Source: a virus
Lineage: Duplodnaviria > Heunggongvirae > Uroviricota > Caudoviricetes
Reading direction: 5' to 3' (one strand)
Virus record (IMG/VR): IMGVR_UViG_2740892270_000010
DNA length: 4,574 bases
Shown: one piece after another, positions 173 to 4,574 of the stretch
How the letters are laid out: each line of letters begins with the position of its first letter
Numbering within the stretch: the stretch's first letter is position 1
The notes under the pieces: generated by a model
What the model was told of the DNA's origin: nothing
The model's input: the letters and a program-made list of their open reading frames with translations, nothing else
Database searches by the model: none
Program-made: the position numbers and the translations under genes

Positions 173-1249
173 ATGAATATTTATCGCGCAATGACATCAT
201 TTTTTAATAATATGATGGCGATGTCTGCTCAGGCAGCTGAAATTTATAATAAAGACAGTAACAAGCTGGATCTGTACGGGAAAGTTAATGCTAAGCACTA
301 CTTCTCCTCTAATGATGCAGATGATGGTGATACTACTTATGCCCGTCTTGGCTTCAAAGGTGAAACCCAAATCAACGATCAACTGACTGGTTTCGGTCAG
401 TGGGAATATGAATTCAAAGGCAACCGCGCTGAATCTCAAGGTTCCTCCAAAGATAAAACCCGTCTTGCCTTCGCTGGCCTGAAATTCGGTGACTACGGCT
501 CCATCGATTACGGCCGTAACTACGGTGTAGCATACGACATCGGTGCGTGGACTGACGTCCTGCCAGAATTCGGTGGTGACACTTGGACTCAAACAGATGT
601 GTTCATGACTGGTCGCACCACTGGTGTTGCAACTTATCGTAACAACGACTTCTTTGGTCTGGTTGATGGTCTGAACTTTGCTGCTCAGTATCAGGGTAAA
701 AATGACCGCACTGACGTAACTGAAGCTAATGGTGATGGTTTCGGTTTCTCCACTACTTATGAGTATGAAGGATTCGGTGTAGGTGCAACCTATGCTAAAT
801 CTGACCGCACTAATAATCAGGTTATCTACGGTAACAACAGCCTGAATGCATCTGGTCAAAATGCTGAAGTATGGGCAGCTGGTCTGAAATATGATGCGAA
901 CAACATCTATCTGGCTACCACCTATTCTGAAACCCAGAACATGACTGTTTTTGGTAATAACCATATTGCCAACAAAGCACAAAACTTCGAAGTAGTTGCA
1001 CAATATCAGTTCGACTTCGGTCTGCGTCCGTCCGTTGCTTACCTGCAATCTAAAGGAAAAGACTTGGGTGCGTGGGGTGATCAGGACCTGGTTGAATATA
1101 TTGATGTAGGTGCAACCTATTACTTCAACAAAAATATGTCCACTTTTGTTGATTACAAAATCAACCTGATTGATAAGAGCGATTTCACGAAAGCATCTGG
1201 CGTTGCTACCGATGATATCGTTGCTGTAGGTATGGTTTACCAGTTCTAA
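173..1249 (+). CDS. nmpC: OmpC/NmpC/Lc-family outer-membrane porin (prophage moron); N-terminal signal region atypical, possibly 5'-rearranged
   Basis: 358-aa ORF. From about codon 15 ([14 protein letters not shown]...) to the C-terminal ...VGMVYQF it reads as a classical 16-strand enterobacterial porin of the prophage NmpC/Lc type, with a C-terminal Phe. The first ~14 codons ([14 protein letters not shown]) do not match the canonical MKKLTVAISAVAAS... signal peptide as I recall it. There is an in-frame TAG immediately upstream (170-172) and no good Shine-Dalgarno. Confidence 0.85.
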
Positions 1250-2693: not shown

Positions 2694-2856
2694 GATTCCT
2701 CCTTGCTGCCAGTCGCAACCATTTTTTATCAACCAGGCTAGCGGTATATCCGAGCAGTGTTGGTATTTCGGATGGCTTCAGCTCAGGCTTACGCTTACGA
2801 CGATTTGATACTCTGTAGATGTGCCCGTTCATGACACGAATAAGCGGTGTAGCCAT
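2686..2856 (-). CDS. ninE: NinE-family small basic protein
   Basis: Hand translation gives [56 protein letters not shown] (56 aa), matching DLP12 NinE as recalled. Strong AGGAGG 4-5 nt upstream; its ATG overlaps the ybcN TAA as TAATG. Below the ORF-track cutoff. Confidence 0.8.
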   Translation of the reverse strand: MATPLIRVMNGHIYRVSNRRKRKPELKPSEIPTLLGYTASLVDKKWLRLAARRNHG

Positions 2857-3311
2857 TACGCCTCCTGCTTATCGCGCAGCTGCTGGTATTCACAGCTCTG
2901 CGGAATTGTCAGGTGGCAGCCGATATTCATCGCCCAGGCTTCGACTTTGCACAGGAAGATGTACATCTCGCCGGTTTCCAGCTCTGACGTATGGCGGAGG
3001 GATTGGACGGTGGTGACCTCGCCGGACACGACATCTACACGGTCTTTGCTTTCGTAGCCGAGATAGGTGTGCTTCATCGCGTCTTTGACCCACTCAGGCG
3101 TAGCGAAGGTCTTGCCGCGGGCGATGAGATATTCGCTGATCTCCGTGTACCACATGTGGCTGAGCGCGTTCTGCGACAGGCTGCGCTTCTCGCGCCACGG
3201 CTTAACCTGCAGGCGTAAGCATTGCCCGGCATCCAGCAATGGCTGAATCTGCTGGCCGATGGCCGCGAAGTTACCGCGATGGAGTTTGATGCCGTCTACT
3301 GGCAGAGTCAT
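2856..3311 (-). CDS. ybcN: NinB-family protein (YbcN-like; recombination mediator / DNA base-flipping protein)
   Basis: 151-aa product with the NinB-type motif ...WREKRSLSQNALSHMWYTEI... (compare lambda NinB ...RNRSLDQNRKLWA...). GGGAGG Shine-Dalgarno 4 nt upstream of the ATG at 3309-3311 (minus). Gene order ninB-ninE-ybcO-rusA-Q is canonical lambdoid. Confidence 0.9.
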   Translation of the reverse strand: MTLPVDGIKLHRGNFAAIGQQIQPLLDAGQCLRLQVKPWREKRSLSQNALSHMWYTEISEYLIARGKTFATPEWVKDAMKHTYLGYESKDRVDVVSGEVTTVQSLRHTSELETGEMYIFLCKVEAWAMNIGCHLTIPQSCEYQQLRDKQEA

Positions 3312-3403
3312 ACGGCCTCCCTAACGGAAACCGCAGAATGCAGAAAATCGCAGGTGCATTTCTGCATCTGTGACAAGGTGATGAGTTCAGATTGTGGTCG
3401 CAT
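3308..3403 (-). CDS. Possible 31-codon micro-ORF upstream of, and translationally coupled to, ybcN (YlcH-like position)
   Basis: Minus-strand ATG at 3401-3403 is preceded by AAGGGGA with a 5-nt spacer and an in-frame TAA just upstream. Product MRPQSELITLSQMQKCTCDFLHSAVSVREAV*; its TGA overlaps the ybcN ATG as ATGA. No homology claim possible. Confidence 0.3.
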   Translation of the reverse strand: MRPQSELITLSQMQKCTCDFLHSAVSVREAV

Positions 3404-3422
3404 TTAAGTCCCCTTAAATGCG
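3399..3422. repeat. Perfect inverted repeat: 10-bp arms with a 4-bp centre (CGCATTTAAG-TCCC-CTTAAATGCG)
   Basis: Read directly from the sequence. It spans the Shine-Dalgarno and start codon of the micro-ORF and lies in the leader of the ybcN operon. No adjacent U-tract on either strand, so it is not a canonical terminator. Confidence 0.6.
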
Positions 3423-3459
3423 CAGAAGTCACCGGAGTTGTTCAGGCTCCGATGAGAGG

Positions 3460-3488
3460 ATTATGGCGGATTGATTACGATAAATCAA
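3460..3488 (-). promoter_or_regulatory. Candidate sigma70 promoter reading leftward into the ybcN-ninE-ybcO-rusA-ylcG-quuD operon
   Basis: On the minus strand: TTGATT (3488..3483), 17-bp spacer, CATAAT (3465..3460). It sits at the GC-composition junction between phage backbone and AT-rich cargo. Confidence 0.35.
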
Positions 3489-3575
3489 AACTATCTTGAA
3501 GCCAAAACAGTGATCTTCGCTTTAAAAACCTTGTATACTTTCACCTAATCACAGCCAGAACTATGGATCTAACCA

Positions 3576-3953
3576 ATGACCAACAAAGAAAACAAAGATA
3601 AATATATTAACAAGTTCAAGAAAGAGCTTTCAAAATATATACAACCAACTGCTGGAGTGGACATTCAATTATTTAACTCTAAGGATGGTGGTGGTGTAAT
3701 TAAAGCCACTTTGAATAGAAGTGGAAAAAGAAAATCATCTATTGCTGGTAATTTTACTAAATTAGGTGAGGCAATTACCTCGAGTGGGCAGAGGGTTTTT
3801 GGTGGTGATCTATCAAATGTGAATTTTTACGGAACAAATACGATTTTTGATGGAGATACAATATTTTTAATTAAATCACCTGATTCAGAGGAGTGGTCAT
3901 CACAAAAAGCTTCCAAAGACGTAGAGGGCATCGTATTTGGAGGGAAAAAATGA
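3576..3953 (+). CDS. Hypothetical 125-aa Lys/Gly-rich soluble protein (AT-rich cargo gene A), function unknown
   Basis: 378-nt open frame in DNA of roughly 25-30% GC, where random frames are dense in stops. ATG start; no signal peptide or transmembrane segment; no family I recognise. A TATACT -10-like element lies at 3534-3539 upstream. Confidence 0.6.
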   Translation: MTNKENKDKYINKFKKELSKYIQPTAGVDIQLFNSKDGGGVIKATLNRSGKRKSSIAGNFTKLGEAITSSGQRVFGGDLSNVNFYGTNTIFDGDTIFLIKSPDSEEWSSQKASKDVEGIVFGGKK

Positions 3954-4035
3954 TTAACATTACTACTAAGGATGCACTCAAGTCAGTGGTGAAGTAAGAG
4001 ATCTAGTAATTCTTCTTGAAACTGATGGAAAAACG

Positions 4036-4377
4036 GTGTCTGATTATTTGCAGCCAATCCCTCCCAAAAAAGATACACACTGGAGCATGATTTTCATTCC
4101 GGTAGCAATTTATATACTACTTAATCTTGTATACATTATTGCTCACCCATTATTTCCTGAAAAATATCTAAAAACATCAACATCTATATTTCTATTCATT
4201 TCCTTCATATTAAGTGCAATAGTAGCATATTTTGTTTTCCATAAGCATAAATCTGCCACTCTATCCATATGCAGCTTAGTGTTCTTAGTGTTAATTGTAG
4301 GTGCTAACGTAGGGTTTATCAGTTACAGCGACCTAACACAAAAAGCGACGCAAAAATTAGATAGTTTGTCTAAATAA
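4036..4377 (+). CDS. Hypothetical small integral membrane protein with three predicted transmembrane helices (AT-rich cargo gene B); start codon uncertain
   Basis: Open frame in AT-rich DNA. Three hydrophobic stretches of about 20 residues (IFIPVAIYILLNLVYIIAHPLF; SIFLFISFILSAIVAYFVF; LSICSLVFLVLIVGANVGFI) separated by short charged loops. First start in frame is GTG at 4036; an internal ATG at 4087 would give 96 aa. Same strand as gene A, 82 bp downstream. Confidence 0.6.
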   Translation: MSDYLQPIPPKKDTHWSMIFIPVAIYILLNLVYIIAHPLFPEKYLKTSTSIFLFISFILSAIVAYFVFHKHKSATLSICSLVFLVLIVGANVGFISYSDLTQKATQKLDSLSK

Positions 4378-4484
4378 TTATGTTGCCATGCGAAGTATGC
4401 ATGGCTGCATGTCTGCCTTCCATTTAAAATGGGCTAAGACCTATAACCCTAAATATTATTCTTTATTATCTTCTTTACCACTTC

Positions 4485-4574
4485 GGTGATGCTGCCAACT
4501 TACTGATTTAGTGTATGATGGTGTTTTTGAGGTGCTCCAGTGGCTTCTGTTTCTATCAGCTGTCCCTCCTGTTC
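4485..4574 (+). mobile_element. IS1 insertion sequence, left terminus (IRL) and first 90 bp; continues beyond the window
   Basis: GGTGATGCTGCCAACTTACTGATTTAGTGTATGATGGTGTTTTTGAGGTGCTCCAGTGGCTTCTGTTTCTATCAGCTGTCCCTCCTGTTC is the IS1 left end as I recall it, including the ~23-bp terminal inverted repeat. Confidence 0.9.
4540..4574 (+). CDS. insA: IS1 InsA (transposition regulator), N-terminal 11 codons only; truncated by the window edge
   Basis: GTG GCT TCT GTT TCT ATC AGC TGT CCC TCC TGT translates to MASVSISCPSC, the InsA N-terminus. Confidence 0.8.
   Translation, partial: MASVSISCPSC

Follow-up and report, generated by a model that had tools for sequence, protein, structure and literature searches.

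A conserved, promoter-like leader module ahead of the nin-Q genes on a lambdoid prophage contig

A promoter-like motif, TTGATT-17-CATAAT, lies on the minus strand of the 4,574-bp stretch of DNA analysed here (the window). It is best read as the ancestral head of a conserved module that opens the ybcN/ninB-type nin-Q operon and that may act as a weak or repressed promoter; we assign this reading a probability of roughly 0.6. The window is the complete draft contig CWUG01000251.1 (assembly GCA_001254715.1), which terminates within IS1, and it originates from a lambdoid prophage, in reverse reading. The module is present in many lambdoid phages and prophages. Its position, ancestry, conservation, RNA structure and leader ORF are shown here; promoter activity, palindrome-mediated repression and any attenuation are properties that we infer for it. 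The putative promoter as such is already known, since it is annotated in the phage 82 record X92588. A motif made by insertion, which the sequence-only reading had considered possible, would have shown a cargo cassette rewiring the late-gene control of a prophage; this idea is incorrect for the window. The motif is instead a putative promoter of long-standing annotation, within a widespread, sharply bounded leader module that precedes recombination genes and Q in many enterobacterial prophages. As a by-product, there is a clearer picture of this conserved leader, in which a palindrome and two covarying hairpins are combined with a coupled micro-ORF. The activity of the motif would decide whether rusA, ybcN and Q can be expressed from cryptic prophages in the absence of pR, and also how N-less lambdoid phages switch on their late genes. 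The coordinates of all features are collected in Table 1.

Table 1. Features of the window around the promoter-like motif and of its surroundings (positions in the window).
Feature	Position	Strand	Remarks
-35-like hexamer TTGATT	3483..3488	-	4/6 to TTGACA
-10-like hexamer CATAAT	3460..3465	-	5/6 to TATAAT (A2 and T6 present); 17-nt spacer to the -35
Predicted transcription start (A)	3453	-	7 nt past the -10; placed by geometry; base of hairpin 1
Palindrome TTGATT-N6-AATCAA, 18 bp	3471..3488		operator-like (putative); overlaps the -35 and the spacer
True backbone/cargo junction	3490..3491		end of homology with cargo-free prophages; alignment breaks after AAATCAAA
Hairpin 1	3429..3455	-	9-bp stem UCAUCGGAG/CUCCGGUGA, invariant loop CCUGAACAA; folding, covariation
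Hairpin 2	3399..3422	-	10-bp stem, GGGA loop; folding, covariation
Leader micro-ORF (ylcH/orf33 family)	3308..3403	-	31 codons, MRPQSELITLSQMQKCTCDFLHSAVSVREAV; TGA overlaps the ybcN ATG (ATGA)
Terminator-like hairpin and U-rich tail	3340..3366	-	TGCAGAAATGCACCTGCG ATTTTCTGCA; pattern scan; inside the leader ORF
Stretch of non-coding appearance	3312-3490		between ybcN and the cargo ORFs
ybcN (NinB/Orf family)	2856..3311	-	first large gene of the nin-Q operon; PF05772 NinB, E = 3.6e-5
nin-Q genes quuD (Q), ylcG, rusA, ybcO, ninE, ybcN		-	
nmpC/ompC-type porin gene	173-1249	+	
TATACT, candidate cargo -10	3534..3539	+	36 nt upstream of the ORF1 ATG; no usable -35
Two-gene AT-rich cargo cassette	3576..4378	+	ORF1 (125 aa) and ORF2
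Replication gene P, last 9 codons and stop	4456..4484	-	cut by IS1; coordinates transferred from the ETEC1731 prophage
IS1, left end (GGTGATGCTGCC...)	4485..4574	+	up to the contig end

The motif, its ancestry and its surroundings

The arrangement of TTGATT, a 17-nt spacer and CATAAT is present at 3488..3460 of the minus strand, as had been claimed. Its description as near-consensus is apt for the hexamers and for the spacer length, which falls within 16 to 18 nt, but the score is 9/12, and motifs of this quality are no commoner than chance; specifically, the window contains 10 of them, compared with 10.0 ± 3.4 in shuffled sequences. Given this chance-level frequency, the motif by itself is of no weight. 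The reported drop in GC content was reproduced as well, with values falling from approximately 0.54 to 0.39 across positions 3300-3600 and an onset at approximately 3470-3480. The local fall begins within the AT-rich promoter/palindrome segment itself.

In the sequence-only reading, the motif straddled the junction between cargo and backbone, with the -35 in the former and the -10 in the latter. A 501-base query (window 3200-3700) matched 2778 E. coli genomes, and nearly all of the matches among those listed ended at base 290-291 of the query, i.e., at window 3489-3490. Homology with cargo-free prophages reaches 3490, past both hexamers, and the motif accordingly does not straddle the junction; the placement of the -10 in the backbone stands, whereas that of the -35 in the cargo fails, since the homology covers positions 3460-3490. 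The cargo-free contexts aligned with the window were K-12 DLP12 (with ybcM on the far side), EDL933 (with ybcK), O104:H4 and XJ5.2. Throughout these, the hexamers, the spacer length and the inner TTGAT are invariant, and similarity ends abruptly after AAATCAAA at 3490; in six- and eight-way alignments with unrelated left-hand contexts, both hexamers and the spacer length were likewise unchanged. The motif was found in K-12 DLP12, EDL933, O104:H4, XJ5.2, phage 82, phi80 and HK639, all of which are without this cargo. Consequently, the -35 is backbone DNA, the cargo adds nothing to the motif, and the backbone ancestry of the motif is certain; the notion of an insertion-created promoter is contradicted by the cargo-free prophages, in which both hexamers stand in register. 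The AT-rich cargo would have been inserted or swapped in directly to the right of the module, at 3490/3491.

A further premise, the absence of the replication genes, could not be upheld. The contig stops in IS1, and the content beyond it is therefore not readable from the window; the apparent absence reflects an assembly break. In relatives without IS1, the cargo is followed immediately on its right by P, O and the immunity region, with cro and cI. The window coordinates of P are based on the gene at 16524-17237 in the ETEC1731 prophage (L001). The IS1 element is located approximately 1 kb from the motif, its transposase gene is directed away from the nin-Q operon, and the IS1 junction of the window was found neither among complete E. 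coli genomes nor in an exact scan of genome contigs. Insertions of IS1 exert polar effects in either orientation; were O, pR and the remainder of P located on the far side of the element, input from pR would be reduced and a local promoter would gain in importance, which is conjecture, as is a dependence of Q expression on this motif. A terminator-like hairpin is positioned on the P strand just 3' of the P stop codon (4431-4449, minus strand), and would therefore be met by pR transcripts before their antisense passage through the cargo.

The window also carries other lesions. Relative to the ETEC1731 prophage, the porin gene has a 67-bp deletion at window 212/213 that takes away the ribosome-binding site (RBS), the start codon ATG and the greater part of the signal-peptide sequence. 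The 358-aa porin ORF on the list thus represents a truncated gene, and its start, with an odd N-terminus, is spurious. Cargo ORF2 (3950-4378) encodes 142 aa and is intact in relatives, whereas in the window it is frameshifted by a 1-nt deletion near 3973. The porin deletion, the frameshift in cargo ORF2 and IS1 together show the decay of this prophage copy. Between the convergent porin and Q genes, there is a strong terminator-like hairpin on the plus strand (1387-1404), composed of GGGGCGTTGCAACGCCCC and a T-run.

To the right of the junction, TATACT is present on the plus strand at 3534-3539 without an acceptable -35, as stated in the sequence-only reading; neither a -35 nor an extended -10 accompanies it. 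A consensus scan did not call the hexamer. Its proposed role as the -10 of the cargo receives modest comparative support from homologs. Cargo copies from IMG/VR with 92% protein identity keep AACCTTGTATACTTTC, with changes in the neighbouring bases, and in a 76% homolog from an unrelated context the TATACT columns read TATGAT, approximately 36 nt before the ATG. Judged from these comparisons, TATACT might be the -10 of a -35-independent cargo promoter, a plausible assignment that nevertheless falls somewhat short of being probable.

Among complete E. coli genomes, 46 carry the cassette, flanked by P and ybcN and as part of a seemingly intact prophage in which O, P, cro-like and cI-like genes are present. 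Over window positions 3491-4483, identity among these 46 genomes is nowhere below 99.5%, whereas the adjoining nin genes are approximately 93.6% identical in many of them; hence, the E. coli copies are uninformative on TATACT, and the cassette is of more recent origin or greater mobility than the DNA on either side. The cargo ORFs match phrog_18061 and phrog_16940, both of unknown function. PADLOC gave no hit for the cargo, and the sole Pfam match, to 7TMR-DISM_7TM in ORF2, remained below threshold; the ORF2 product looks like a small membrane protein. Hairpins past ORF2 were detected by pattern scan only.

In several phage contigs, two copies of the module are located 2 to 4 kb apart and bracket inserted genes, among them antirepressor-like and antisense ORFs. 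The module thus delimits a hot spot for cargo that separates the replication from the nin genes, and the cassette of the window is situated at the standard edge. The paired copies lie at 505-569 and 2968-3032 in contig L151 and at 10378 and 12689 in L129, with further pairs in L049, L042 and L111; the genes inserted between them also include a pair of small sense ORFs.

RNA hairpins and micro-ORF of the leader

Folding of the leader RNA, when compared with that of shuffled sequences, gave a z value of -4.5. IMG/VR was scanned with the core pattern and, separately, with the downstream anchor; a covariance model was built from ten gap-free seeds, and 68 matches were realigned. In hairpins 1 and 2 together, 97.3% of the alignment cells were paired, compared with 27 to 40% when the partners were slid, values to be read with the caveat that the alignment was fitted to the model. 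Changes on both sides of the stem were observed for 17 of 19 pairs, and the observed values were reached by no shuffle. Taken singly, hairpin 1 showed such changes in 8/9 pairs with 95.5% of the cells paired, and hairpin 2 in 9/10 pairs with 99.1% paired. Entire stems are replaced (CGGAG/CUCCG, GUCAG/CUGAC, GUGG/CCAC and GCCGCCGG/CCGGCGG), and the loop core UGAAC remains constant. G·U pairs are plentiful on the nin-sense strand, which is therefore the folding strand. By the measure of this covariation, hairpins 1 and 2 are real RNA structures.

Hairpin 1 begins at the predicted +1 position. Its two outermost pairs lie upstream of that position and retain slight covariation, which requires part of the functional RNA to have a start upstream of the predicted one. 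Rfam contained no family matching anywhere in the window at E ≤ 1, and a search of the window for a partner site of the invariant hairpin-1 loop returned nothing above chance. In one IMG/VR contig (L130), three tandem hairpins, each with a CCTGAACAA/CCTGAACAG loop, are located 3' of the core motif, suggesting that the hairpin-1-type loop is a recognised unit open to multiplication.

The GGGA loop of hairpin 2 is the Shine-Dalgarno (SD) sequence of the leader ORF, the AUG of which is placed within the 3' arm of the same hairpin. The leader ORF was detected in 37 leaders out of a diverse set of 51; among these 37 ORFs, 34 combine a length of 31 to 33 codons with an ATGA or GTGA overlap with whichever gene follows, and the core LSQMQKCTCDFLHSA is common to all leader ORFs detected. 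It is annotated as orf33 in phage 82 and as ylcH in K-12, and it has no match to a Pfam or PHROG family. For the terminator-like hairpin inside this ORF, the sequence block is invariant and the site is kept in a relative; the U-tract varies between types.

Promoter activity and alternative readings

The motif had been put forward as a candidate promoter for the nin-Q operon. Its conservation in register and the phage 82 annotation support this, but the K-12 copy shows no Cappable-seq start at the predicted site, and we regard the motif as a reasonable candidate promoter for the ylcH-ybcN-ninE-ybcO-rusA-ylcG-quuD operon. Conservation was assessed in 79 distinct homologs, a set defined by the downstream anchor alone and hence unbiased for the hexamers. 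The -10 is CATAAT in 72 of them, the variants being AATAAT, TATAAT, TATGAT and CAATAT, and A2 and T6 are retained in all but one (78/79). The -35 is TTGATT in 72/79 and begins with TTG in 75/79; TTGATT is invariant across 8 different genomic contexts. The less critical hexamer positions and the right palindrome arm vary more, with AATCAA in 52/79. Homology sets in exactly at TTGAT, upstream of which 64 different 20-mers were counted. Where an unrelated block is located upstream, a promoter appears in the same register, the examples being TGtTATAAT, TTGAAA-17-CAATAT and TTGATT-17-TATGAT. Conservation and same-register replacement speak for a real promoter, one that is probably weak or repressed.

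In the K-12 DLP12 copy, the closest relative with experimental data, the hexamers are identical to those of phage 82, with the -35 at 572284-572289 and the -10 at 572307-572312. Cappable-seq data for K-12 from one growth condition contain no start at the expected positions 571540-571543 (U00096.2), where a 5'-terminal hairpin may hinder capture; the only start is a weak one at 571565 (U00096.2), inside hairpin 1. This weak start (NC_000913.3 572342) corresponds to approximately window 3430, in the 3' arm of hairpin 1; it lies between the predicted +1, approximately 23 nt upstream, and the ylcH ATG, 26 nt downstream, and its would-be -10 position is occupied by the invariant loop CCTGAACAACT. 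When loop and motif were compared by eye with the consensus sequences for sigmaE, sigma32, sigma54 and sigma28, no convincing match was noted. The SMRT-Cappable-seq supplements contain no entry for the genes of this operon. K-12 rusA has been described as 'normally quiescent', its transcription requiring an IS2 or IS10 insertion upstream, and according to Curtis et al., this operon requires an added active promoter if it is to be expressed adequately.

Genes upstream of the element have the same orientation in 35 cases and the opposite orientation in 11, with 36 unclear. Terminators just upstream of it were found in 5 of 82 cases, compared with 0 to 4 in controls, i.e., without enrichment. Co-oriented upstream genes and the lack of terminator enrichment make read-through from pR the default supply. 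On the same two grounds, the element was rejected as the start of an independent transcription unit.

The palindrome arms are invariant in the aligned contexts, and across the 79 homologs the left arm is the better conserved of the two. Promoter function does not account for the conservation of the ATCA in the spacer, which suggests a factor bound at the palindrome. A second perfect TTGAT-N8-ATCAA lies in the immunity region of the ETEC1731 prophage (L001 19036-19053), with its centre at the cro-like start codon, and may be due to chance; HK639 has no second copy, including at the equivalent place. The palindrome was considered as a repressor operator and set aside, the operators of the ETEC prophage resembling ATTGCAAT repeats and a second copy being missing from HK639.

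On balance, we lean slightly towards the motif being a genuine but weak or repressed internal promoter. A wholly functionless chance match to the consensus would agree with the 10 hits of this quality against 10.0 expected in the window, but the hexamers and their spacing are near-invariant in dozens of divergent homologs with unrelated flanks, and we consider such a match very improbable. Even harder to sustain is a hybrid promoter made by the cargo insertion that would have taken over the expression of Q as a consequence of the loss of pR and the replication genes. The onset of the GC fall at approximately 3470-3480 would suit it, as would a window with IS1 on its right and no O, P or pR inside. 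Yet the hexamers stand in register in cargo-free prophages and phages, the break is at 3490/3491, and the draft contig simply ends in IS1, with P, O, cro and cI past the cargo in IS1-free relatives; this leaves the hybrid virtually no credibility.

A rather unlikely reading, though one to be taken seriously, dispenses with the promoter altogether. The palindrome and CATAAT would then be a protein-binding or module-boundary (recombination linker) site, nin-Q would be transcribed wholly from upstream, and the hairpins would act only in the pR read-through RNA, on its stability, on ylcH translation or on termination/antitermination. K-12, with its silent rusA and no start found at the predicted site, is in line with this, and so are the mostly co-oriented genes upstream of the element, the paired copies that flank inserted cassettes in several phage contigs as a recombination boundary would, the covarying outer pairs of hairpin 1 upstream of +1 and the conserved ATCA of the palindromic spacer. 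The conservation is asymmetric, however, and fits sigma70 rules (A2, T6, TTG) better than a symmetric binding site; moreover, unrelated replacements re-create the promoter in register, the spacer is fixed at 17 nt, and hairpin 1 is located at +1. It is also conceivable, if distinctly unlikely, that the block is an autonomous device gating N-independent entry to the nin genes and Q by means of a repressible promoter, the hairpins and YlcH with its terminator-like hairpin. The palindrome would serve as the operator of such a device, followed by a 5' hairpin with the invariant UGAAC loop and an SD-presenting hairpin, and its output would be translation-dependent attenuation or a short leader RNA. 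If true, this could explain access to Q in N-less lambdoid phages such as HK639 and the silence in cryptic DLP12.

In the preferred reading, that of an ancestral promoter that is weak or repressed, the module runs on the minus strand from the palindrome over the -35 through the -10, a hairpin at the 5' end of the predicted transcript and an SD-displaying hairpin to the leader ORF, which with its 31 to 33 codons encloses the terminator-like hairpin and is translationally coupled to ybcN. A weak or repressed sigma70 promoter of this kind would allow the leader and the nin genes to be transcribed to some extent independently of pR, whereas read-through from pR would remain the source of most Q expression in lytic growth.

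Comparison with known systems

The closest known system is the orf33-orf151 promoter of phage 82, together with its homolog in DLP12, which shares with the window TTGATT, CATAAT, the 17-nt spacer, the inverted repeat and a small ORF coupled to ybcN. Record X92588 lists a 'minus_35_signal' at 50-55 (TTGATT) and a 'minus_10_signal' at 73-78 (CATAAT), which occupy alignment columns identical to those of the window motif, and further a 'possible regulator-binding site' at 82-110, an RBS and orf33 overlapping orf151 (ybcN). The record is reportedly linked to the rusA work of Mahdi, Sharples, Mandal and Lloyd. The site labelled in 1996 as possibly regulator binding corresponds to hairpin 1 and behaves in this analysis as an RNA hairpin, with covarying stems and a fixed loop, rather than as a duplex operator. 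In phi80, the second inverted repeat, i.e., hairpin 2, is annotated as IR4. The window differs from phage 82 and DLP12 in spacer and discriminator bases (TTATCGTA, CCTCTC); its hairpin 2 is of the 'ATTTAAG' type, whereas that of phage 82 and K-12 is of the 'TAAACG' type; and its left neighbour is the antisense cargo cassette, which replaces the phage 82 or DLP12 sequence.

The leader is carried by 29 phage records, including phage 82, phi80, HK225, HK639 and Enterobacter and Klebsiella phages; none of these 29 records is lambda or P22. Delayed-early transcription in lambda proceeds from pR, with N antitermination, past tR2 to tR4 in the nin region and then into Q. The gene order from replication genes to nin genes to Q is the same in lambda, and the terminator-like hairpin at the nin entry of the window occupies the position of lambda tR2; to our knowledge, no promoter or leader ORF has been described at this point in lambda. 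In contrast to lambda, some carriers of the module, e.g., HK639, are without an N gene, and only a left-operon put RNA is annotated. How Q is reached is thus a question in HK639 in particular, with no N gene and only a put-like RNA of the left operon annotated; there, an annotated right-operon terminator is located upstream of the module and ninB-Q (L211 41560-41586, 42241-42400).

The IS2- or IS10-activated rusA of K-12 concerns the same locus and the same question, namely how the nin genes are driven without pR input, and differs in that neither hexamer of the window comes from inserted DNA. With leader-peptide attenuators and HK022 put, the module shares a likeness of layout only, i.e., a promoter, two hairpins, a short ORF and a terminator-like hairpin. 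Morons are promoter-gene-terminator cassettes inserted between the genes of lambdoid phages. The cargo of the window differs from them in that it matches only PHROG families of unknown function and its promoter and terminator are putative; it is moron-like in its AT-rich composition, its opposite orientation, its candidate -10 of its own, the hairpins past ORF2 and its location at a hot spot where other phages bear different cassettes.
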